NCBI RefSeq assembly: GCF_988243305.1
Contig: NZ_OZ547138.1
Strand: one strand, 5' to 3'
Source of the DNA: a plasmid
Length of the DNA stretch: 64,000 nucleotides
Shown here: positions 16,449-63,693 of the stretch, in pieces
Layout of the letters: every line of letters starts with the position of its first letter
How positions within the stretch are numbered: the first letter of the stretch is position 1
The notes under the pieces: generated by a model
The model's input: only the letters and a program-made list of their open reading frames with translations
The model's database searches: none
What the model was told of the DNA's origin: nothing
Made by a program: the position numbers and the translations under genes

Positions 16449-17351
16449 GTGAGTAAGAAGAAAAACACCACAACGCCCACGCCGCATGATGCCGCGTTCC
16501 GGTCGTTCCTGGCGAATCCCGACGTCGCCAGAGATTTTCTGGAACTGCATCTTCCGGCGGAGTACCGGCAGTTGTGCGACCTGTCCACGCTGAAGCTGGA
16601 ACCCGCCACCTTTGTAGAGCCGGACCTGCATCAGTACGCCAGCGATATCCTCTGGAGCGTGAAAACCACCGGGGGTGAAGACGGCTATGTTTATACGCTC
16701 ATCGAGCACCAGAGCACCGAAAATCTGTACATGCCTTTTCGCATGTTACGTTACAGTGTGGCGGCGATGCAGAGACATCTGGAGCAGCACAAAACGTTGC
16801 CACTGGTGATTCCGGTGCTGTTCTATCACGGTGAGCGCAGCCCGTACCCGTACAGCATGAACTGGCTGGACTGTTTTGAGAATCCGGCACTTGCGGCTAA
16901 AATATACACAAAGCCGTTTCCGCTGGTTGATATCACTGTCGTTGATGACAATGAAATCATGAATCATCGCCGGATGGCCGCACTGACGCTGCTGATGAAG
17001 CATATCCGCCATCGTGACATGATGGAGCTGCTGGACAAACTCCCGAAGGTCATGGTGGAAATTTCAGACGAGCAGGTGCGTGTTCTGATTCATTACATCG
17101 TTAACGCAGGGGACTCTGTATCACCGGAATTTATGCGGGCGCTGGCTGAGCGTCTGCCGCAGCATGAGGATAAACTGATGACTATCGCAGAACGTCTTGA
17201 GCAAAAAGGTCGCCAGGAGGGCAGGATGGAAGGTGCGCTTGAAAAAGCCCTGGCTATTGCGTGCCAGCTTCAGAAAATGGGGATGACGCCGGAGCAGATT
17301 AAGCAGGCTACCGGGCTTTCCGATGACGAACTGAAGAAAATCACTCACTGA
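16449..17351 (+). CDS. Rpn-family (YhgA-like) recombination-promoting nuclease / putative transposase
   Basis: GTG start with AGGAGG RBS; about 300 aa with the YhgA-like core (ASDILWSV...YTLIEHQS) and the characteristic repeated C-terminal tail (ERLEQKGRQEGRMEGALEKA). Confidence 0.7.
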   Translation: MSKKKNTTTPTPHDAAFRSFLANPDVARDFLELHLPAEYRQLCDLSTLKLEPATFVEPDLHQYASDILWSVKTTGGEDGYVYTLIEHQSTENLYMPFRMLRYSVAAMQRHLEQHKTLPLVIPVLFYHGERSPYPYSMNWLDCFENPALAAKIYTKPFPLVDITVVDDNEIMNHRRMAALTLLMKHIRHRDMMELLDKLPKVMVEISDEQVRVLIHYIVNAGDSVSPEFMRALAERLPQHEDKLMTIAERLEQKGRQEGRMEGALEKALAIACQLQKMGMTPEQIKQATGLSDDELKKITH

Positions 17352-53857: not shown

Positions 53858-54962
53858 TGTGATACTCCTCGCTATCTGTTGCTTTCAGGAAGAGGCGAAC
53901 GGAAGTGGCGTCTTTCAGGATGCCGGACGGCAGGTGCCAGCCGGTATCTGATAACACCCAGGGGGTTCCGCCAAAACCGAACTGGCGGAAAGCCTGGTTA
54001 TTGACATCGATGGCAGCACGTGCGGCGGTCAGACACTGTCCATCCTGTGCGGCCGGTGCATCGCCGGTGGGGGCCATACCACTGTCAGCGGAATACAGCT
54101 GATGCCATCCGGTCGCCCGTTTTTGTGAGTCCGGTTCACACAGCAGCGGAGCAGTCCGCTTTGTACTGGACTCCCCGCCAATCACGGAGACCGGATAAAT
54201 CACCACGCTGAATTCCCGGGCCAGTTGCTTAAGCGCGGGTTCCAGCAGACGGCAGTTGATGCATGCGGGGTCAAGGAAGGCGTACAGCGTGCGTTCATGA
54301 CCAGTGGACAGGTTAATGGTGAACATCCCCCGGTCTGCGTTGCGTTTAAGTACTGTGGCCAGATTACGGCGGGCCTCAGCGGCCTGAACGTGTTGTTCTT
54401 CCGTCACTGCCGTCGGGGCGGGGGCAGAAGAAGGTTCCTGCTGTGTGGGAGCCGGGCGGGCCGGGATGCTGTTAACATGATGTTCCGTATGTGGGCGTGG
54501 TGTCTCTGTGTCGGTTACTGGTTCAGCTCTCCATTCCTGAGATGTAGGGTAAGCCAGCGTGGAAGGGGGCTCTGCCTTCATCCAGTGGTAACCTGCAACT
54601 GTCGCCGGCAGAGCAATTCCGGCGATAAAGCCACACATCAGTGTCCGCCAGAAGCCATTTTTCCGGGAGGGATGTTTTCCTTTTCCGGCATATTCGGCAT
54701 CCAGGCAGGCATCAATCGCTGAGAGCATTCTGCCGATGTGATGTCCGGGACGTTCTGCATCAACGGTATCAACAAGCACCGTTTCGGTTATTTCGCGAAA
54801 AGGGGAACTGAAGGACAGGTGCATCAGCCTGTTATTACGGTTAATCAGTGCGCCCAGTTCTGTGACTGGCAGGATGGCAATCACCTCCCGATTACCGTCA
54901 GGGTACAGGGCGATCAGGGACAGGTGTTTATTATTCAGTGTTGCAGTGTAGTGGATGGTCAT
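53838..54962 (-). CDS. trbB: Conjugal transfer protein TrbB (thioredoxin-like, CxxC)
   Basis: 374 aa with CINC motif, Pro/Thr-rich linker and a transmembrane segment. Confidence 0.7.
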   Translation of the reverse strand: MTIHYTATLNNKHLSLIALYPDGNREVIAILPVTELGALINRNNRLMHLSFSSPFREITETVLVDTVDAERPGHHIGRMLSAIDACLDAEYAGKGKHPSRKNGFWRTLMCGFIAGIALPATVAGYHWMKAEPPSTLAYPTSQEWRAEPVTDTETPRPHTEHHVNSIPARPAPTQQEPSSAPAPTAVTEEQHVQAAEARRNLATVLKRNADRGMFTINLSTGHERTLYAFLDPACINCRLLEPALKQLAREFSVVIYPVSVIGGESSTKRTAPLLCEPDSQKRATGWHQLYSADSGMAPTGDAPAAQDGQCLTAARAAIDVNNQAFRQFGFGGTPWVLSDTGWHLPSGILKDATSVRLFLKATDSEEYHNEPAPR

Positions 54963-56293
54963 TGTTCTTTTTCCTTGTCGGCGGGATGCTGTTTTTCGGT
55001 GGTTTCGGTGGTTTCGGTGGTTTCGGTGGTTTCGGTGGTTTCGGTGGTTTCGGTGGTTTCGGTGGTTTCGGTGGTTTCACCAGTGTCAGTGTCTTCGTCG
55101 TTATCATGGCGGCGGGGTATCACGTCATCCGTGAGTGACCAGCGGGTCCTGATCTGACGTTTACGATCGCGATCTGGCTGAGGTTCGTCCCATATCAGGC
55201 CCAGCCCCAGCATGTCCCGTCGAAGCCCTTCAATGGCCTCTTCCACACAGGGTTCCGGGCAGGGGAGGCCGAGACGGCTGGCTTCATTTTCTGCCCGGGC
55301 AACGGCCACCACGCCGGCCCCTTCGATGAAGCCTTTTGTGGTGTTTGCCCGGTGAAGGGCATAGAAGAGCGTCCGGTCAACGCCCTTGAGCCACAGCCAG
55401 TTCGGAGGCGTCAGGCGCAAATCATGTGCGTAAAGCCAGACCAGACCGCTGCGAACGTAACGGTGCTGCCTGAGCCACTGTTGTGCGCCTTCTGTTTTGA
55501 TGACCCGGATAAAGGCGTTTCTGGCCAGTGAATACACCGGCGTGCTGAAACGCCCCTGGTCCCGTTTACTTTTGAGCCTGCAGGAGAGATTGAGGTTGTT
55601 CATCAGGGCTACCGCTGCTTTCCGGTCACCGAGGAAGAACTGCAGGCCAAAGATGGCAAAGAGCGCTTTTTCATGTGGGGCCATGTCTTTCCAGCTGGTC
55701 AGTGGTTGCCCCAGTTGCGCCATGAAGCACTGGCGTGTGGACGCAACATCGAGCTGCATGTTGCGGATAAGGTTGTTCTGCTCCACAAAGACTTCGGGGG
55801 TTAGTGCGACACGGCGCTCGGGACGTTTTTGTCCGTGGAAGAGTCTGTTGTTGTCTCCATCAGCCAGAACGGGGGCGATCGCCGGTGACAGAGCTGAAAA
55901 AATATGGGGCAGTGTGTGGATATTCAGTGGCCTGCGGGTAAAACGGGGCTGGGCCGGATGGTGAAACCACATCCACAGAAAGCCGAATGTCATGGGAAGC
56001 AGAATCAACCAGAGGATCCCCACTGTCCGGGACATAACATCCAGCCACTGGCCGAAAGTGATGGTTGCCGCGTTGTTAGCAGTGATGGCCAGCAGGTTGT
56101 AACGGGGGGCGGCAAAGTTGTGAAAGGGCCCCCAGTCAATCATGCCCCACAGTGTGTGCAGGATCAGGCAGGAGGCGAAGACGATTTCAGGTAAAAAGCG
56201 CCAGATGATAATCGCAAAGAGCAGGCATATGGCACCGACGATATACCATATAGCCATTGGATCTTCGGCGGCAGACGTCTGTTGGTAAGACAC
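54959..56293 (-). CDS. trbA: Conjugal transfer membrane protein TrbA with C-terminal TET tandem repeat
   Basis: 444-aa polytopic membrane protein, first gene of the trb operon; C-terminus GETTETTETTETTETTETTETTETTE. Confidence 0.7.
   Translation of the reverse strand: MSYQQTSAAEDPMAIWYIVGAICLLFAIIIWRFLPEIVFASCLILHTLWGMIDWGPFHNFAAPRYNLLAITANNAATITFGQWLDVMSRTVGILWLILLPMTFGFLWMWFHHPAQPRFTRRPLNIHTLPHIFSALSPAIAPVLADGDNNRLFHGQKRPERRVALTPEVFVEQNNLIRNMQLDVASTRQCFMAQLGQPLTSWKDMAPHEKALFAIFGLQFFLGDRKAAVALMNNLNLSCRLKSKRDQGRFSTPVYSLARNAFIRVIKTEGAQQWLRQHRYVRSGLVWLYAHDLRLTPPNWLWLKGVDRTLFYALHRANTTKGFIEGAGVVAVARAENEASRLGLPCPEPCVEEAIEGLRRDMLGLGLIWDEPQPDRDRKRQIRTRWSLTDDVIPRRHDNDEDTDTGETTETTETTETTETTETTETTETTETTEKQHPADKEKEQ
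54994..55080. repeat. Tandem 9-bp repeat (GGTTTCGGT, about 9.5 copies) within the 3' end of trbA
   Basis: Perfect tandem repeats read directly; encode the (TTE)n tract on the minus strand. Confidence 0.85.
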
Positions 56294-56436
56294 GGGGATT
56301 CCTCCATCGATAAATAGATAAATTTCGGGATGAGGCTGAGTGGAATTAATGCGAACAATCGCCGGTAATGACTGGGCAGGGCTGAATTCAGCAGGGCATT
56401 TTCACAGGAACAGCAGAAGGTGGTGAGAGACAGGCA

Positions 56437-56535
56437 CAAAAAAGCCGACTGGTGAGGCCGGCTTTTTTGCGATCCCAGGGAGAGTGGGTGGCTCTGGCCC
56501 GGAGGAAGTCTCTTTTCAACTAACGTTACCAGAAT
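56437..56535 (-). ncRNA. Candidate antisense antitoxin small RNA 1 (predicted, type I TA unit 1)
   Basis: Minus-strand promoter-like TTGCGA-17-TATTCT near 56560-56590, 34-nt segment complementary to the toxin-1 5' UTR (motif 56491-56524 versus 56727-56758), terminated by a hairpin plus T-run on the minus strand (56437-56467). Confidence 0.35.
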
Positions 56536-56829
56536 ATCGTTATATTCACCTGATCGCAATCTGTTCGTTACAGTCTATTGTTCCGGGAGTAGCGATATCG
56601 CCTGAAACAAGTATAATCAGCAAGTTAGCCTTGTCTGGAGACTTACCTTCGCATCAATCCATCGGGACTATGGATCTGTGCTATTCAAAGACCTGGCCGG
56701 ACAAACAGGTGGTGCTGCGTCTGGTGCTCTGGCCGGAGGAAGTCTCTTTTCAGCTAACAATGAAAGAGCTGTTGTGACAGGCAATGTAAGAGTAAACAAC
56801 AGTGATTTCCTCCATTGATGGAGAAACGG

Positions 56830-56925
56830 ATGATTAACCTGTTAATCATCGTTCTCAGGGCGGTTGTTGCTGTGGCTAACGCAGTGATAGCAATCCTGGA
56901 ACTGATCCGGGAACTGGTTGACTGA
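56830..56925 (+). CDS. Candidate DinQ/TisB-like type I toxin, 31-aa hydrophobic peptide (copy 1)
   Basis: MINLLIIVLRAVVAVANAVIAILELIRELVD; RBS GGAG embedded in the palindrome CTCCATTGATGGAG; strong terminator downstream. Confidence 0.55.
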   Translation: MINLLIIVLRAVVAVANAVIAILELIRELVD

Positions 56926-56946
56926 TAATCCCGGAAACGTACTTAA

Positions 56947-56975
56947 GGGCAGAGGGTCACCGCCCTCTGCCCTTT
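56947..56975 (+). terminator. Rho-independent terminator of toxin unit 1
   Basis: 10-bp stem GGGCAGAGGG-tcaccg-CCCTCTGCCC followed by TTT. Confidence 0.6.
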
Positions 56976-57163
56976 AATAATCTACGGACAGATTACTTTC
57001 TGTACTTCCAGAGCCTGTTTCTGTGAGTCAAACATGAGCTGGTTTTTACCGACTACACCCAAGTAAATATATTCGATATCTCCCATTTGCCGTATTTTCG
57101 TAAAATTCAACAGGAAATATTCAACGGGAGTGAGAGAACTGCTGTCCGGGGAGGAGGTACAGA

Positions 57164-57262
57164 CGCAAAAAAACCGACTGGTGAGGCCGGTTTTTTTGCG
57201 ATTCCGGATCGAAGTTGGTAGCCCTGACCGGAAGATAACTGCCTATAACTGACTATGAAATA
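57164..57262 (-). ncRNA. Candidate antisense antitoxin small RNA 2 (predicted, type I TA unit 2)
   Basis: Minus-strand promoter-like TTGCAG-17-TATTAT near 57285-57315, segment 57221-57252 matching the toxin-2 5' UTR motif (57410-57441), hairpin plus T-run 57166-57197. Confidence 0.35.
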
Positions 57263-57513
57263 ATACGGCTGAAATAATATTTCTGCAAGCACAGTATAAG
57301 TATATACTCGGTGTGTCAGCTTTGAGGCACGTTCTTTCCGGCATATCGTTCACCGGGATGAACAGGTTGCAAGTCCTGGCCAAAACATCAGGTGGTGCTG
57401 GTTTTGGTGCTCTGGCCGGAGAAGAACTGTCTATAACTGACACTATAGAAAACGTGGCGACAGGCAATGTAAGGGCAAACCACGGTGTTCTTTCTCCATT
57501 GATGGAGAAGCGG

Positions 57514-57609
57514 ATGATTAACCTGTTAATCATCGTTCTCAGGGCGGTTGTTGCTGTGGCTAACGCAGTGATAGCAATCCTGGAACTGATCCGGGAACTG
57601 GTTGACTGA
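57514..57609 (+). CDS. Candidate DinQ/TisB-like type I toxin, 31-aa peptide (copy 2, identical coding sequence)
   Basis: Coding sequence identical to 56830-56925, same RBS palindrome and terminator. Confidence 0.55.
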   Translation: MINLLIIVLRAVVAVANAVIAILELIRELVD

Positions 57610-57630
57610 TAATCCCGGAAACGTACTTAA

Positions 57631-57659
57631 GGGCAGAGGGTCACCGCCTTCTGCCCTTT
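57631..57659 (+). terminator. Rho-independent terminator of toxin unit 2
   Basis: GGGCAGAGGG-tcaccg-CCTTCTGCCC followed by TTT. Confidence 0.6.
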
Positions 57660-57997
57660 AACAAAATATGCTCAGGTTAAAAATCGAAAACCTTCCTGCA
57701 CTTCCTGTGCCTGTTCCCGTGAGTCAAACATGAGCCGGCTTTTACCCGGAACTCCCCAGGAAATATATTCTACATCCACCCACCATTTTCCGTATTCTTC
57801 ATACGGTCCGGATATCACTTTAGTGACAAATGCATCAACCAGGTTCATTTTTACACCTTTCTGTTATTCTGCTTATTACGACCAGCAGACAGCAAATATT
57901 AAAAATAACGCGGCGGTAAAAATGGCAATTTTTTCCATGCTGTATTTTTGCCATTTATTTTCTTTGAAATGGTTTTTTTCTTCATATCAGCAAATAA

Positions 57998-58465
57998 TTA
58001 TTTCTTATTCTGTTTTCTCCAGGTCCATGGTGGTACCGGATTTTTATCTGCCCATAATCCCCGCTTCAGGGCGCGGGCATCACGCTGGAGCGGCGGGAGA
58101 GTATAGTCATTATTGTAGTCCGGGTACACCCAGGCAGCGCCGTTACGGACCTGCCAGCGATTTGCTTCTGTGCCGTCAGCGGTATAGACCCGGCCGAGAA
58201 TACGGCCATACCTGTCTGTCTGCGCGTATTGCACGGTTACGGGCTTTCCGGCCACCAGGTCCTTCAGCTGAGTGGCTGACCAGCGTCCAAAGGGCTGTTT
58301 CTTTTCCGGTGCATCAATATTAGCCAGACGGACCCTGACAGGCTTTTTGTCCTGTAATATTTCCAGCGTATCACCATCAAGAACGCGGATGACGTGCCCC
58401 TGAATCTGTGCGGCACAGAGAGAGGCGGAAAAAATAATGGTGAGTGAAAATATATATTTTATCAT
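57998..58465 (-). CDS. nuc: Secreted thermonuclease-like endonuclease (SNase family, plasmid nuc-type)
   Basis: 155 aa with signal peptide and SNase-like motifs (VIRVLDGDTLEI, RLANIDAPE, DRYGRILGRV). Confidence 0.8.
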   Translation of the reverse strand: MIKYIFSLTIIFSASLCAAQIQGHVIRVLDGDTLEILQDKKPVRVRLANIDAPEKKQPFGRWSATQLKDLVAGKPVTVQYAQTDRYGRILGRVYTADGTEANRWQVRNGAAWVYPDYNNDYTLPPLQRDARALKRGLWADKNPVPPWTWRKQNKK

Positions 58466-58567
58466 TTCATCGTCTCCTTTTTATTTATGAAAACAGGTGC
58501 AATTAATATTGCGAAATAATAACGTTCAGGTGTGTTTTTTTTGGCAGTGTGATACTTCACGCAGGGC

Positions 58568-59248
58568 ATGAATTCCAGTACGCTGATATCCGTGATGATA
58601 CGGCAACAGATATCCGGTGACGGTATGCAGGAACATATTGATTATCAGATTGAGAAATATCAGTTCAGGGCCAGGAATGAGTCACCGCGACTGATGCGCC
58701 AGTGGGAAGATGTCATGCGTGAATGCCGTGATACCGGAGCAGGAGCCAGGGAGCGGCTGCGGATTGCCTTACTTAATGTTGATTATGTGACCAGTTTTGA
58801 ACTGCCGTTTCGTCTGCTGTTAACCCGGACACCGCAGATGATTGACAGCGTGCGGCGGGAATGGCAGCTCAGCCAGAAAAAAGTTGTATTCAATGAGCGG
58901 CAGCGGGGATGTGTATACAGTCTGCAGAATGACTTATCCGGCGTGCCGGATAGCTTCAGTTACAGTCTTGCGACGCGAATACGGCGGGCGGACAGCTATG
59001 GCATGACGACGCGTTGTTTCACTGATATAGCCGGGCAGGTTAAAGCCCCGACAGCACGGCTGAAACTGGCGCTGGAAAGCGGGTTAATTGTCACCGCGCT
59101 GGATGGTCTGTTCTGGCTTGGTATTCAACGTATTGCCGCAGATGTGCAGCGGCTGCGTCAGTCCGGAATGACAATCATCACCCGGGATGTTGAGGTCTCA
59201 GACTCGCTGACCGGAACCACACGGGTTGTTTCCGGGTACAGCCTTTGA
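58568..59248 (+). CDS. Hypothetical protein (start uncertain, possibly ATG 58626)
   Basis: 226-aa ORF; no recognisable motif. Confidence 0.4.
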   Translation: MNSSTLISVMIRQQISGDGMQEHIDYQIEKYQFRARNESPRLMRQWEDVMRECRDTGAGARERLRIALLNVDYVTSFELPFRLLLTRTPQMIDSVRREWQLSQKKVVFNERQRGCVYSLQNDLSGVPDSFSYSLATRIRRADSYGMTTRCFTDIAGQVKAPTARLKLALESGLIVTALDGLFWLGIQRIAADVQRLRQSGMTIITRDVEVSDSLTGTTRVVSGYSL

Positions 59249-59449
59249 TTTATGCAACAAAGTATCGCAGCGTCGAATATGAGCTATGGCCAGATTTTTG
59301 TTAATCGTGGTTGTTGCAACATGTAAGGCGAATGACCACACTATTCTGGCACGCTCGTAATCATGCTGAAATTCTGCTTCCTGTCCTGCCGTGATGAGTT
59401 CCGACCAGGACATACGGCGAAGTGTATGTCTGTCAGTAATATCCGTCAT
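59198..59449 (-). CDS. Small hypothetical protein (fourth gene of a coupled four-gene cluster)
   Basis: 83 aa; start overlaps the upstream gene stop by 4 nt. Confidence 0.35.
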   Translation of the reverse strand: MTDITDRHTLRRMSWSELITAGQEAEFQHDYERARIVWSFALHVATTTINKNLAIAHIRRCDTLLHKSKAVPGNNPCGSGQRV

Positions 59450-59661
59450 GAGCTCTCAGCCTCCTCCTTCGTATTTCCGTCAGAAACACAAACGCCCCGC
59501 AGAGAAAATTCGCCAACATTCTCCTTTTTAATGGCGCGCAATGCATCGCGGCAGGCCCGTTCGGTATGAAAGGCCTGGCTGTGCACCGCCAGTGTGGGCT
59601 GACGGGCATCACCGGAAGAGACATTAAAGGGCGATGAAAGCCAGAAAATCAGTAGCCACAT
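59446..59661 (-). CDS. Small hypothetical protein with N-terminal hydrophobic segment (third gene)
   Basis: 71 aa; MWLLIFWLSSPF signal-like N-terminus. Confidence 0.35.
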   Translation of the reverse strand: MWLLIFWLSSPFNVSSGDARQPTLAVHSQAFHTERACRDALRAIKKENVGEFSLRGVCVSDGNTKEEAESS

Positions 59662-59664
59662 GCG

Positions 59665-60048
59665 TCACACCTCGTCCTTTTTATGCGGGTATCTGGACAG
59701 AATATTGAGCGCCTGTAATGGCGCTTCATGCATTTCACGGATACAACGGGCATCGGTGATATTTTCCCGGTAATGTGTGGTTTCCAGCATCATATGATGC
59801 ATATGGAGCATCCGGGCCAGGGCTGCGCGGAGTTCTTCAATATGTTGTTCATGGGAATGCTGGCGGGGCTGTATCCGGCAGAGAGGGATAACCTCCACAT
59901 CATCCGGGTGCGCGCGAAGCCACGCGTCAGTGACTGCAATGTCGTCAGTGTAAAACCATGTGCCGGATGTCCCGTTGGCCAGAAAACGCATTTTCCAGGT
60001 TTCTGGGGTGGCGGTTGTGTTGTTATCTTTCATGGTGCCACCACTCAT
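59665..60048 (-). CDS. Hypothetical protein (second gene)
   Basis: 127 aa; start overlaps the upstream gene stop. Confidence 0.4.
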   Translation of the reverse strand: MSGGTMKDNNTTATPETWKMRFLANGTSGTWFYTDDIAVTDAWLRAHPDDVEVIPLCRIQPRQHSHEQHIEELRAALARMLHMHHMMLETTHYRENITDARCIREMHEAPLQALNILSRYPHKKDEV

Positions 60049-60236
60049 TCAACAGGCTTAATGCTGTCCAGGCGCAGTCTGCTCAGACTGTCGTGGCTGC
60101 CACAGCGGCGTCCAGTGCTTTTGCTGTAGCACTCCTGCCCCCTGATACACCATGCCGTTGGCGTTTCGTAGAGGCTGACACGTCGGGTTTTATCTTTAAT
60201 GATGAGAAGCCCGGTGTGAGTTTTTGTCTTTTTCAT
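60045..60236 (-). CDS. Small hypothetical protein (first gene)
   Basis: 63 aa. Confidence 0.3.
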   Translation of the reverse strand: MKKTKTHTGLLIIKDKTRRVSLYETPTAWCIRGQECYSKSTGRRCGSHDSLSRLRLDSIKPVE

Positions 60237-60323
60237 CGGTGGGGTACAAACGCAGAAATTTTGTTGTCATCAGTTTTTGCCTGCAGAGGCCTGAAAAGAC
60301 AGCGTTTTCAGGCCCTGTTCAGG

Positions 60324-60566
60324 TTAGTGAATATTCTTGCCTGGCTTTTCGGCAATATCAATCCCCTGAAGTTGCATGGATATCCCATGCCCATTGAGCA
60401 TCTGGCTGTCCATGGAATGGATACCGCATGTCATCATCAGGTTGTAACAAAGCGTACTCAGCATGGTGAGCGCCTCTTCTGAGGATTTACAATGTGTATT
60501 CATAAGGGCCAGAAACTGCTCAACAACATCCGGGTTAATGCTGGTACTGTGTATTTCATCCTTCAT
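60324..60566 (-). CDS. Small hypothetical protein (start taken at MKDEIHST)
   Basis: 80 aa from an internal ATG with a weak RBS; the longer ORF extends to 60644. Confidence 0.35.
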   Translation of the reverse strand: MKDEIHSTSINPDVVEQFLALMNTHCKSSEEALTMLSTLCYNLMMTCGIHSMDSQMLNGHGISMQLQGIDIAEKPGKNIH

Positions 60567-60747
60567 GATGTGTCCTTGTTTTTTATTATTTTGCATTTCA
60601 GAAAATAACACGATGCCTGCAGCCCGGAAAACAGATGTGTGCACACGTAGTCACTTTCCGGCTTTATTTCTGTCCCTGACACAAAATACGTGGTGGCATG
60701 AAAAGGATTGTGGCGGACAGGAAAACGATTAGAATAGCGGCGGGCGC

Positions 60748-61041
60748 TTGAGGCTGTATGCCGAAAGCGTTTTGTGGACGGCATGTAGCAGAAAGCCCCA
60801 GGCGATTTTTTTATCAATCAACCCAGGGCCCACTGTAATGCCTAGACAACATTATAGTAGCCCGATGACGGCCGAAAGGCAATGGAGGGGCTGCGATGCC
60901 ACAACGAACGTTTTTAATGATGTTAATCGTCGTCTGTGTGACGATACTGTGTTTTGTCTGGATGGTGAGGGATTCGCTTTGCGGATTTCGTATCGAGCAG
61001 GGAAATACGGTGTTTGTGGCAACGTTAGCCTACGAAGTTAA
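60748..61041 (+). CDS. pndC: Candidate PndC (mok-like frame overlapping pndA; true start uncertain)
   Basis: ORF overlapping pndA in another frame, as in hok/mok-type loci. Confidence 0.35.
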   Translation: MRLYAESVLWTACSRKPQAIFLSINPGPTVMPRQHYSSPMTAERQWRGCDATTNVFNDVNRRLCDDTVFCLDGEGFALRISYRAGKYGVCGNVSLRS

Positions 61042-61048
61042 ACGTTAA
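60896..61048 (+). CDS. pndA: Hok-family type I toxin PndA
   Basis: 50 aa MPQRTFLMMLIVVCVTILCFVWMVRDSLCGFRIEQGNTVFVATLAYEVKR, GGAGG RBS. Confidence 0.85.
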   Translation: MPQRTFLMMLIVVCVTILCFVWMVRDSLCGFRIEQGNTVFVATLAYEVKR

Positions 61049-61185
61049 CGGGCAACACGGCGGCAGGACATCTGCCGCCGGATTGTTGCGAAGGCTGACC
61101 TCAATGCGCCTTGTTTGTCTTTTTTACCGGACGACTGCTGGATGCTGCTGTCCGGCAGCTATTATTTTTTCCGTCCTGTGCGTCA

Positions 61186-62772
61186 TCAATTATGACAGTC
61201 GCTCTCATTTGGTTGTCTCTGGTTAGATGTATTATTAGATATTTTCGGGGTAATTCGATAAAAGTTATCCACTTCAGCACCAGACTGAATGATATATGCA
61301 ATAAGATCTAAACGATGAATCTCGTATCGTGTACGTAACTCCATCATTTCACGCCATGCTAAAATCCTTGATGTTTTCAGTTCAGCCTCTATAAGTTTCC
61401 ATGTGTTTGTTGAGATGGCATGTTCTTCCAGCTGACGTAACGAGAACCTATCACTAATGACCAACCATCCCCATCCTCGAGTATGTGCCCATTTGCGACC
61501 TGCATTACTTTTTATTCTCGTGAGACTCAAGGTCATTCGGTCTGTTGGCTTCACTTCCATAAGTAGGCACCGACCATCAACTGTCGCAATGAGTAAATCT
61601 GGATAGTATTTTTTTGATTTGTTTTTAAAACAATATGGAATAGAAAATGGTTGTTCTTGATAGAAAAGAACCTGATCGCAACATTCTAATAGATTCATTA
61701 TTTTAAACTCAAGCCCTGATTCGTACTGGACTGTACGACCTAATTTTTGAGAGTAAAAGAATCCAGATATGTCAGTATCATTAACCGCTCTCTGTGAACA
61801 TAGCTGTTCTACGGGGGGAGGAGGTGCGATATATTTTGGCCAATGTGTATTGTCTAGCCATTTACTGAATATGAACTCAACTCTTTCTTTCTTGATTCGG
61901 GCTCTTTCCTGAGCGTGAGCGTGTGCTAATTCTGCTCTTCGTTCACGTAACTTCTGCTTTTGTAATTGTGATATTAATGAGAGCGAATTTTTTATTTCAT
62001 CTCGTCTTGCTTTAGGAATGCCTGCGGCAAAAATGATGAATTTGGCGGCTAACTCAGAGGATGTAACGAAATCCCGATGAACAATACGATAAATCCATAC
62101 TGCTATATCATATGGTGAATTACCTATTGAGTTAATAAGGGCTTTAAGGCAAGCTCCAGGTGTCCCTTCATAGCGAGATTTAGCAGCTAGTAAGCCAAGG
62201 GCTCGTTCCTGAAGTTGTCTTACCCTTTCACGGGAAATTCCTAATTTGACGGCAATATCTGCCAGAGAATGAGGTGAATCATCTGTGCCGAGTCGCATTA
62301 GAAGAATATATTGATGTCGTTTATTAGATAAACTTTCGATAGCAGAATGAATTAGCATAATGACATCATGTTCATCGGCTATATAATCTTTAAAATCTGT
62401 ATTGGGTTGGCAGAGGGGGAGTGGGGTATTTTGTTTAAAACTATTCTTTTGTATTTCAACTTTATCATGAGCAATTGTTTTTGCAGTGCTCAATGATATT
62501 AAATTATTGATGATACTATTGTGTTCTTGGCGAGGAATCTTGTTGAAGTAATTGCTGAGATCATTCACCGTGTTTATATCGTTGAACTCAAGAAACTCAG
62601 AAGGAAGCAGGCGTTTGATTGCTCCACGTATTCCCCCGGACGATCGTTGATGTGTTTGAGTAAGTTTTTTTAGCGAGACGCCCTCCGCTATGGATACGAG
62701 AAGACGCTGTAACTCTTCAGTATTCCATGGAGTACCATGTCGTGCTGGAAAATTGCTGCGGGATTCAGACAT
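61186..62772 (-). CDS. Hypothetical protein combining a sigma-70 region-4-like HTH with a C-terminal PD-(D/E)xK (TnsA-like) nuclease-fold domain
   Basis: 528 aa; middle segment LADIAVKLGISRERVRQLQERALGLL; C-terminal YESGLEFK...YPDLLIATVDGRCLLMEVKP resembles the E...D...EVK catalytic arrangement of TnsA-like endonucleases. Confidence 0.5.
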   Translation of the reverse strand: MSESRSNFPARHGTPWNTEELQRLLVSIAEGVSLKKLTQTHQRSSGGIRGAIKRLLPSEFLEFNDINTVNDLSNYFNKIPRQEHNSIINNLISLSTAKTIAHDKVEIQKNSFKQNTPLPLCQPNTDFKDYIADEHDVIMLIHSAIESLSNKRHQYILLMRLGTDDSPHSLADIAVKLGISRERVRQLQERALGLLAAKSRYEGTPGACLKALINSIGNSPYDIAVWIYRIVHRDFVTSSELAAKFIIFAAGIPKARRDEIKNSLSLISQLQKQKLRERRAELAHAHAQERARIKKERVEFIFSKWLDNTHWPKYIAPPPPVEQLCSQRAVNDTDISGFFYSQKLGRTVQYESGLEFKIMNLLECCDQVLFYQEQPFSIPYCFKNKSKKYYPDLLIATVDGRCLLMEVKPTDRMTLSLTRIKSNAGRKWAHTRGWGWLVISDRFSLRQLEEHAISTNTWKLIEAELKTSRILAWREMMELRTRYEIHRLDLIAYIIQSGAEVDNFYRITPKISNNTSNQRQPNESDCHN

Positions 62773-63045
62773 GATTTTATCTTTATGTTTTCTAGGTACT
62801 GCCTTGAGTGTGTGGTTATGATAATTATTTATAATGATATTGTTATCTTTTATAGATAACTGATATGCAGAATTGTATTGATTTTGTCTACAGTGGGCAA
62901 GACAGTGCTAAGAATTTGTGGGGAAAACATAGAGACTCCATGCGGCGTCCTGAGATAGACGGCAGACAGGCATTCTGCCTGAAAAGAAAAAGCCGGTTCA
63001 GAGAAAACCGGCTGACGGATTATCGTCTAACAGTTGATAGCTACC

Positions 63046-63693
63046 TCAAAATACTTCTGCAACAGGAACACCGGCAACTTTTTCCCACTCTTTAACCCGA
63101 TACCGGATCATCTGTGGGAAACGTTCCTTGTACTCATATCCACGTGCAGCCATGGTGTGCATGGTGTTGGCCAGCGTCCTTGATGAGATGCCGGAGATTT
63201 CCAGTGGGATCATCGGCAGACTCACATATGTAGTGTGGATTTCCAGCTTGCCGTCTTCAGCAACCGTGCGGGTAAAGTTGTGAATATCCAGACCAATCAC
63301 ATCCATCACATTGTTCGGATAAATGCGCACATACAGCATGGTGCCGTTTTTAATGTCGATCCCGAAATAACAACTCTTCGAGAATGACAGTTGCTCATAA
63401 TCGCTGGTTGGAGCAAAGTGACAGCTTTCTTTTATCTGCTGAACAACCTGCTGGACTTTCTTTTTTTTCGCTCTGGTTCTCAGATATAGCCAGAGTAATG
63501 GGAGAATTATTAATGCCCAGCATCCATATGCAAAAATAAAATCCATTGTTTGAGATAAGGCTGAATCATGAACAATTAGTGTTCCGAAAAAAGCATAAAA
63601 TAATAAGCATGGTATGCCAAATATGAAATACGCATTGCGAACAAGGTAATAATATGGCCACCAGGAAGGATATCTGCTTTTTGTTGTACTCAT
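63046..63693 (-). CDS. Inner-membrane protein (two N-terminal TM helices plus soluble domain); possible entry-exclusion (ExcA-like) protein
   Basis: 215 aa; sits directly downstream of a partial gene that may be a traY-like transfer gene; exclusion assignment is positional only. Confidence 0.4.
   Translation of the reverse strand: MSTTKSRYPSWWPYYYLVRNAYFIFGIPCLLFYAFFGTLIVHDSALSQTMDFIFAYGCWALIILPLLWLYLRTRAKKKKVQQVVQQIKESCHFAPTSDYEQLSFSKSCYFGIDIKNGTMLYVRIYPNNVMDVIGLDIHNFTRTVAEDGKLEIHTTYVSLPMIPLEISGISSRTLANTMHTMAARGYEYKERFPQMIRYRVKEWEKVAGVPVAEVF

Follow-up and report, generated by a model that had tools for sequence, protein, structure and literature searches.

What is the function of a plasmid gene that joins the DNA-reading part of a sigma factor to an endonuclease domain, and does the small membrane protein encoded next to it belong to the same system? 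The question is raised by positions 61,186-63,693 of a 64,000-nucleotide stretch of plasmid DNA (contig NZ_OZ547138.1 of assembly GCF_988243305.1; the whole stretch is called the window). The original prediction, made from the letters alone, described a 528-amino-acid fusion of sigma-70 region 4 and a TnsA-like PD-(D/E)xK nuclease adjacent to a small membrane protein with two transmembrane segments, and both open reading frames (ORFs) are real as described. It was suggested that the pair might be a defence module, or else a transfer regulator with an exclusion protein. The analysis presented here shows an accessory gene of IncI-gamma/I1-complex plasmids that is self-contained, was acquired horizontally and encodes a soluble, single-polypeptide product. 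Judged from their sequences, the members of its family couple promoter-recognition modules of RNA polymerase to a predicted nuclease. The favoured reading, to which a probability of about 0.5 is given, is that the 528-residue protein is a stand-alone defence or conflict nuclease directed against invading DNA (phage or rival plasmid), and it builds on the anatomy of the protein, its conservation and a small sample of gene neighbourhoods.

The gene and the parts of its product are the following:

61186..62772, minus strand: coding sequence, 528 amino acids, 61 kDa, isoelectric point 9.3, product identical to RefSeq WP_000004564.1
62599..62745, minus strand: N-terminal three-helix module (residues 10-58), Myb/SANT- or GcrA-like by pattern alone, with invariant G13, W16 and E20 and an RHxR motif
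62173..62370, minus strand: sigma-70 region-4 domain of the primary-sigma type (residues 135-200), recognition helix SRERVRQ, from Pfam and a PDB profile search
61843..62172, minus strand: helical linker (residues 201-310) that includes one 54-residue helix (254-307), from the AlphaFold2 secondary structure
61453..61785, minus strand: TnsA-type PD-(D/E)xK catalytic core (residues 330-440), catalytic candidates E351/E355, D392, E406 and K408
61243..61440, minus strand: C-terminal winged-helix domain (residues 445-510), placed where the TnsA C-terminal domain sits, from the AlphaFold2 model

Both of the domains that had been proposed are confirmed by profile methods. Pfam finds Sigma70_r4 at residues 150-193 (E 2.2e-8) and Tn7_TnsA-like_N at residues 366-440 (E 1.8e-11). 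A profile built from 37 relatives and searched against the PDB matches solved sigma-A region 4 and primary sigma fragments with an E-value of 7e-16, and region 4 is 35% identical to that of E. coli sigma-70. The acidic and lysine motifs of the C-terminal part align with the ES.LEF, PD and E.K motifs of a solved TnsA from a CRISPR-associated transposon (CAST), and structure comparison gives TnsA as the closest fold to the nuclease domain. An AlphaFold2 model made on the family alignment has a mean predicted local distance difference test score (pLDDT) of 89, with disorder limited to residues 1-5, 102-121 and 514-528. The nuclease core of the model runs on into the winged helix, as it does in TnsA, and the structure prediction that had been suggested as a check has thus given a TnsA-type fold. 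The protein carries an intact TnsA-type E/D/ExK site, and nuclease activity is predicted from it. The 54-residue linker helix of the model is a possible oligomerisation element. Hydropathy analysis finds no hydrophobic segment at transmembrane level in the protein, and Pfam finds no PUA, SRA or other known modification-reader domain. A match to the PHROG family phrog_218, labelled 'head closure', was set aside, since it is the nuclease core that matches a family with that label.

The N-terminal module has no significant match in Pfam and gives weak Myb or GcrA signals otherwise. The PDB profile search yields Myb hints with E-values of 0.2-8, together with a spurious WH2 match, while hhalign gives a probability of 62% against the N-terminus of GcrA. 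Kinship with Myb or GcrA is a lead, not a finding.

Residue conservation was counted in 204 representatives of the family, about 201-202 of which could be scored at each position. Among the catalytic candidates, D392 is kept in 200 of 201, E406 in 198 of 202, K408 in 196 of 202 and E355 in 201 of 202, while position 351 is E or D in 197 of 202. The residues of the sigma recognition helix reach similar figures, with E182 in 194, R183 in 195, R185 in 192 and Q186 in 200 of 201 sequences. These four correspond to E585, R586, R588 and Q589 of sigma-70, which contact the -35 hexamer. As the two sets of residues are equally conserved, selection appears to maintain both the chemistry of the nuclease and the face of region 4 that reads DNA.

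In spite of its region 4, the protein is not a sigma factor, since region 2 is missing. Pfam finds no Sigma70_r2 match at E<=10, and the sigma-factor models of NCBIfam are matched only over their C-terminal 50-100 residues, far under the cut-offs. What the protein has in common with sigma-70 (PDB 1ku7, 3n97) is the primary-type region-4 helix-turn-helix (HTH) with its conserved -35-contacting residues; unlike the sigma-70 family it lacks sigma regions 1-3, hence any core-binding or -10 function, and its HTH is fused to a nuclease.

The family is widespread. Sixty-six close relatives of the protein were found. Full-length relatives containing both domains occur at 43-60% identity in Dickeya, Pectobacterium, Salmonella, Providencia, Buttiauxella and Mangrovibacter, at about 40% in Xanthomonas and Stenotrophomonas, and at about 30% in Streptomyces, Kitasatospora and Archangium. 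An exhaustive profile search gave at least 452 family clusters at 50% identity and E<=1e-30. Neighbours in the AlphaFold database (AFDB) come from Proteobacteria, Actinobacteria, Bacilli, Bacteroidetes and Chloroflexi, and all are either unnamed or labelled 'sigma-32' or 'sigma subunit'. A scan of contigs with family patterns was less specific; the ERVRQ pattern caught genuine sigma factors, and the true member among the matches listed was L016, from Nonomuraea. Among 50,697 phage records there is a single full-length relative, so this is not a typical phage gene. Three members from Streptomyces and Kitasatospora (P0051, P0055 and P0056; alignment columns ~808-856) share a conserved C-terminal addition of about 45 residues, PSPEDIE.ARTPAGGWTR.QLA.WGV.WPPP.GWK, that is not present in the proteobacterial members.

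The names given to these proteins are of little help. RefSeq calls WP_000004564.1 'TnsA endonuclease N-terminal domain-containing protein', and the source names for the exact 528-residue protein are all domain-derived. Elsewhere in the family the labels 'RNA polymerase factor sigma-32', 'RpoS', 'sigma subunit', 'CsgD family regulator' and 'TnsA transposase' are found. The sigma and regulator labels follow solely from the match to region 4 and are misleading; neither 'sigma-32' nor 'RNA polymerase sigma subunit' nor 'TnsA transposase' fits. Literature searches found no paper describing the protein or its family, and papers on END nucleases, anti-conjugation systems and telomeric transposons were checked and are unrelated to it.

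The part that precedes region 4 varies between members, and some of it is again borrowed from RNA polymerase. Region 4 and the nuclease occur together in 201 members; a hidden Markov model (HMM) of the Myb-like N-terminal module matches 97 of these, 61 have nothing before region 4, and the rest have other extensions. Of 35 longer members, 5-7 have a Pfam match to RNA_pol_A_CTD, the C-terminal domain of the RNA polymerase alpha subunit (alpha-CTD), with a best E-value of 5e-15, and one has a match to GcrA (6e-4). A custom HMM placed alpha-CTD-like domains ahead of region 4 in 12 of 212 proteins, the carriers including P0108, P0112, P0166, P0168 and P0140. These domains keep the equivalents of R265, N268, G296 and K298 of E. 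coli alpha-CTD, the residues that bind the UP element. When RNA polymerase is bound to UP/-35 DNA, alpha-CTD lies immediately upstream of sigma region 4, and the solved ternary complex of alpha-CTD, sigma region 4 and DNA (3n97) is among the top structural matches. That the same N-to-C order is found in one polypeptide suggests that the alpha-CTD-bearing members read a promoter-like composite site.

The plasmid context shows how the gene came to lie beside the membrane protein gene. The features involved are:

61117..62957, minus strand: accessory cassette of 1841 bp, 39% guanine plus cytosine (GC) against 55% for the window, made up of the 528-residue gene and its own upstream region
62818..62900, minus strand: candidate promoters TTGCCC-17-TACAAT and ATAACA-17-TATCAT in an AT-rich leader, by consensus scan alone
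62991..63013, minus strand: intrinsic terminator of excA (9-bp stem, 5 GC pairs, T-run), separating excA from the cassette
63046..63693, minus strand: excA, IncI surface/entry exclusion protein of 215 amino acids with two transmembrane segments, from NCBIfam NF033891, hydropathy and RefSeq annotation
60896..61048, plus strand: pndA, a Hok/Gef-family toxin gene, the other neighbour of the cassette and outside the feature

Conjugative multiresistance plasmids of the IncI-gamma/K1 type from E. coli and Shigella, among them p1-S1-KEN-03-A, p866 and pHUSEC41-1, match the window with 100% identity. The alignment of the window with the IncK2/Z plasmids pHB42-5 and pEC1107-NDM stops at position 61116 and restarts at 62958, and in these plasmids pnd lies directly beside excA without any cassette. 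The cassette, in which the gene is preceded by 185 bp of upstream sequence belonging to it, replaces 156 bp; no terminal inverted repeats or target duplications are found at its borders, 61117 and 62957. A conserved block, TATCA[CT][TC][GA]TAAAT...CAT (window 62800-62860, minus strand), is also found upstream of the homologues from Pectobacterium (L002), Providencia (L008) and Salmonella (L010), indicating that a promoter or operator travels with the gene. The block might serve in autoregulation.

The reference plasmids R64, R621a and pESBL do not have the gene, yet encode complete sets of transfer and exclusion genes. Self-transmissibility has been shown for pESBL, and its transfer requirements have been mapped (PMC4288162). 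About 280 of 1873 related plasmids (~15%) carry the gene, as do 268 of 5426 complete E. coli genomes (~5%), in which it is found on plasmids only and is >=99% identical. The possibility that it is the transfer-control locus 'Hft' of pESBL was rejected, Hft being a 270-bp region elsewhere and pESBL being without the gene. The interval between trbA and excA is a variable region that has been reported before, and FinQ or IS609 is found there in other IncI1 plasmids (PMC8004404). The position of the cassette beside excA is the result of insertion into this region and not of functional pairing.

Genomic context was examined in a small, non-random sample, comprising 13 loci for shared neighbours and 11 contexts outside IncI for defence systems; P0088 and P0067 were left out because their contigs are too short. 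The gene is solitary in all 13 loci. Among the 336 ORFs lying within 4 kb on either side there is no recurring neighbour family beyond one HNH pair and a housekeeping gene. A confirmed defence protein lies within 8 kb in 6 of the 11 contexts, as a raw count. In Pectobacterium, GajA (9e-269) and GajB (2e-230) of Gabija are found about 300 bp upstream and an McrB-like gene downstream. An LmuB-like SMC protein (Lamassu-like) and SIR2 are found nearby in Xanthomonas, Borvo BovA (2e-128) and a NOV_C protein on a Providencia plasmid, and BREX brxA/B/C/pglX in Salmonella. An integrase-bounded island has Thoeris ThsB (4e-132), an HNH protein and a STAND-like NTPase near the gene, and the M. abscessus prophage an OLD-family ATPase. 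In the other contexts the gene lies in variable islands where no known system was recognised (a transfer-messenger RNA-integrase island, PIN toxin-antitoxin genes, RHS toxins, rpoD-hipA) and, in Streptomyces, at one nondescript locus.

Two further observations concern these loci. An ORF for an HNH_2-type nuclease directly adjoins the family gene in two unrelated loci, L010 (7160-7816, plus strand) and L103 (9786-10844, plus strand), on opposite sides of it. The two are 29% identical (E 7e-11) and are the sole recurring non-housekeeping neighbour in the 13 loci. In a gammaproteobacterium (L101, 1454-9596) the homologue is found a few kb downstream of the housekeeping rpoD and a gene for a hipA-like kinase, with 2.3 kb of uncalled DNA between; this placement may be a coincidence or an insertion hotspot.

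Taken as cargo of plasmids, islands and prophages, which is the best-supported view of the gene within the favoured reading, the 528-residue protein would most likely protect the plasmid-bearing cell, and hence the plasmid. The earlier idea of a defence module stands in part: a defence role for the nuclease by itself is plausible, the support being its genomic context (6 of 11), while the pairing with the membrane protein does not hold. In the mechanism envisaged, HTH modules taken from the transcription machinery would bind promoter-like DNA, or sense something at such DNA, and would then bring the TnsA-type nuclease to it or permit the nuclease to cut there. Self DNA might be spared because RNA polymerase occupies the promoters of the host. 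Alternatively, cleavage might need several sites or oligomerisation via the long helix, or the nuclease might be activated by a phage factor. A more far-reaching proposal is that the family forms a new class of single-protein immune nucleases built from promoter modules of RNA polymerase (sigma region 4, with or without alpha-CTD and a Myb/GcrA-like domain). Such nucleases would either recognise exposed UP/-35 architecture on incoming DNA and cut there, or use the modules as integrated decoys that detect phage proteins taking over sigma region 4 or alpha-CTD and then release the nuclease. In both cases a gene that is frequent among clinical IncI resistance plasmids, and present in about 5% of complete E. 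coli genomes, would be a source of immunity carried by the plasmid. This is put forward tentatively and is doubtful as it stands.

Several points weigh against a defence nuclease. A nuclease reading -35-like hexamers would be expected to harm its own cell if left unregulated, and neither a regulator nor an immunity gene was seen. TnsA of Tn7 needs TnsB and TnsC for activity, which makes an autonomous TnsA-type nuclease an assumption. Known defence genes were recognised in only about half of the contexts, not in those of Streptomyces, Stenotrophomonas and rpoD-hipA, and the 11 loci are a small and non-random sample. In about one fifth of the E. coli carriers the copy is truncated or disrupted by an insertion sequence (IS), so the gene is dispensable and may be costly. 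Finally, no system model in PADLOC-DB v2.0.0 matches the protein beyond a partial SspB match (4e-4, residues 171-274), which was set aside as a match of the HTH region.

Known defence proteins offer partial parallels. Shedu/SduA (bioRxiv 10.1101/2023.08.10.552793) and modification-dependent restriction enzymes (PMC12191111) likewise combine a conserved nuclease core and a variable N-terminus in one polypeptide, the N-terminus in the present family being Myb-like, alpha-CTD-like or lacking. The genes of the family are likewise solitary, and they may belong to defence islands. The family differs from these nucleases in that its core is of the TnsA type and not DUF4263 or PLD, and in that its putative sensor modules are derived from RNA polymerase. 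A precedent for a sigma-derived module in defence is MzaA (NCBIfam NF041931), a sigma-70-family protein of the MZA anti-phage system. The 528-residue protein matches it weakly and over region 4 alone (1.7e-6, 27 bits against a cut-off of 800 bits), and MzaA, unlike this protein, is part of a system of five genes and lacks a TnsA domain. The gene does not resemble a type II restriction-modification system either, as no methyltransferase gene is adjacent to it in the window or in the homologue loci. The family is probably a single-protein defence-type nuclease of which no earlier description was found in the literature or among the PADLOC models.

Among the alternatives, the one that survives best is that the region-4 and alpha-CTD modules are integrated decoys. 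They would mimic surfaces of RNA polymerase that phage takeover proteins bind or modify, and binding would switch on the nuclease in a manner resembling abortive infection. The fused modules do come specifically from RNA polymerase, with region 4 being of the primary-sigma type and alpha-CTD present in relatives, and the defence-island context would suit such a sensor. The surfaces in question are targeted by T4 AsiA, by the T4 ADP-ribosyltransferases Alt and ModA and by many phage activators, and phage G1 ORF67 bound to sigma-A domain 4 (4g6d) is among the structural matches. However, the near-invariant residues of region 4 are the DNA-contacting ones (E182, R183, R185 and Q186), and the alpha-CTD-like domains keep their R265 and N268 equivalents, a pattern predicted by retained DNA binding. 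Nothing ties the family to any phage protein, and the decoy explanation is unlikely.

The closest fold being TnsA, it might also be asked whether the protein is a selfish or relic nuclease of a mobile element, either an orphan of a Tn7-like transposon or a homing-type endonuclease whose free-standing gene spreads when intergenic promoter-like sites are cut and repair copies it in. TnsA is the endonuclease subunit of the heteromeric Tn7 transposase (PDB 1f1z, 1t0f), and the PD-(D/E)xK domain with its E/D/(E/Q)xK site is common to both proteins. The best NCBIfam match of the 528-residue protein is to the TnsA-like transposase subunit model NF033179 (2.4e-12), with 46.8 bits against a cut-off of 110. 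A solitary cassette that has its own candidate promoters, occupies unrelated intergenic positions and is foreign to the plasmid in its GC content also fits a mobile nuclease. On the other hand, neither tnsB (DDE transposase), tnsC (AAA+) nor tniQ is near the gene in the window or in the 12 homologue loci, and no transposase of any kind lies alongside it in the 13 loci. The cassette is without transposon ends and target-site duplications, and some 330 additional N-terminal residues with HTH modules are not found in TnsA. With TnsB and TnsC lacking, no ends and a score under the family cut-off, the protein is not a Tn7 transposase subunit. Conservation over the full length and catalytic invariance across phyla are contrary to a decaying relic, and the IncI insertion replaced 156 bp without splitting a recognisable target. 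A mobile-element nuclease in either form is therefore quite improbable.

Still less probable is a plasmid gene regulator, in which the sigma-type HTH would control the transcription of genes for transfer, exclusion or maintenance, and the nuclease domain would be of minor importance or without activity. In favour of it are the three HTH-type modules of the protein and the location of the gene between pnd and excA, within the transfer region, and some sources annotate it as a sigma factor or a CsgD-family regulator. Against this, R64, R621a, pESBL and ~85% of the related plasmids do without the gene, relatives are found in chromosomal islands that have no conjugation genes, the catalytic residues are ~97-100% conserved, and the lack of region 2 means that it cannot be a sigma factor. 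The guess that the membrane protein is an exclusion protein was itself correct, since it matches NF033891 (E 6.4e-80) and has two hydrophobic segments by hydropathy. The neighbouring gene is thus excA of the IncI ExcA/TraY entry exclusion system; the 528-residue protein is not part of that system, being absent from the plasmids in which exclusion was defined, and a part in transfer control is not supported. Least credible of all is a two-gene module in which ExcA senses or anchors and the nuclease executes: the genes are adjacent, on the same strand and 273 bp apart, but the excA terminator stands between them in the part common to plasmids without the cassette, excA is a core gene of all IncI plasmids while ~15% have the nuclease gene, and no ExcA-like or other membrane-protein partner is found beside any relative in the 13 loci.

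Along the window, the leading region with ardA, psiB and ssb is followed by nikAB, by a resistance island that measures about 26 kb, and by trbCBA; then come a variable part, the Hok/Gef (pnd) toxin gene, the 528-residue gene, excA and the start of traY. The trbA-excA variable region (56300-61116) is unlike that of R64 in both order and content. The DinQ-like type I toxin gene dqlB is present twice, several small ORFs are of no assigned kind, pnd adjoins the cassette and not trbA, and two larger genes are found:

57998..58465, minus strand: gene of the secreted thermonuclease family
58568..59248, plus strand: gene for a 226-amino-acid HTH protein

The TrbA gene (54959..56293, minus strand) contains a perfect 9-bp tandem repeat, 9.4 copies of TTTCGGTGG at 54994-55078, which is translated into a (TET)n tract towards the C-terminal end of the protein. 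R64, R621a and pESBL have a TrbA of about 402 residues, and the lineage of the window one of 423-444; from this difference the repeat appears to be a length polymorphism of the contingency type affecting a transfer protein. The multiresistance island (~24655-50700) is located between nikB and trbC in the order IS26 - mph(A)/mrx/mphR - IS6100 - chrA - sul1-qacEdelta1-aadA5-dfrA17-intI1 - TnAs1 - tetR/tet(A) - IS26 - strAB - ISVsa3 - sul2. A gene for an Rpn-family recombination-promoting nuclease is found in the leading region (16449-17351, plus strand), and R621a has one at the same place.

One practical consequence holds at once, namely that the database labels of these proteins need care. If the favoured reading is true, a family that is widespread and as yet without a name would join the bacterial immune repertoire, and targeting or sensing by means of borrowed, promoter-reading parts of RNA polymerase would be an unusual principle. 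A sizeable share of the epidemic IncI-gamma/I1 multiresistance plasmids would also carry immunity to phages or plasmids, which would bear on phage therapy and on competition between plasmids.

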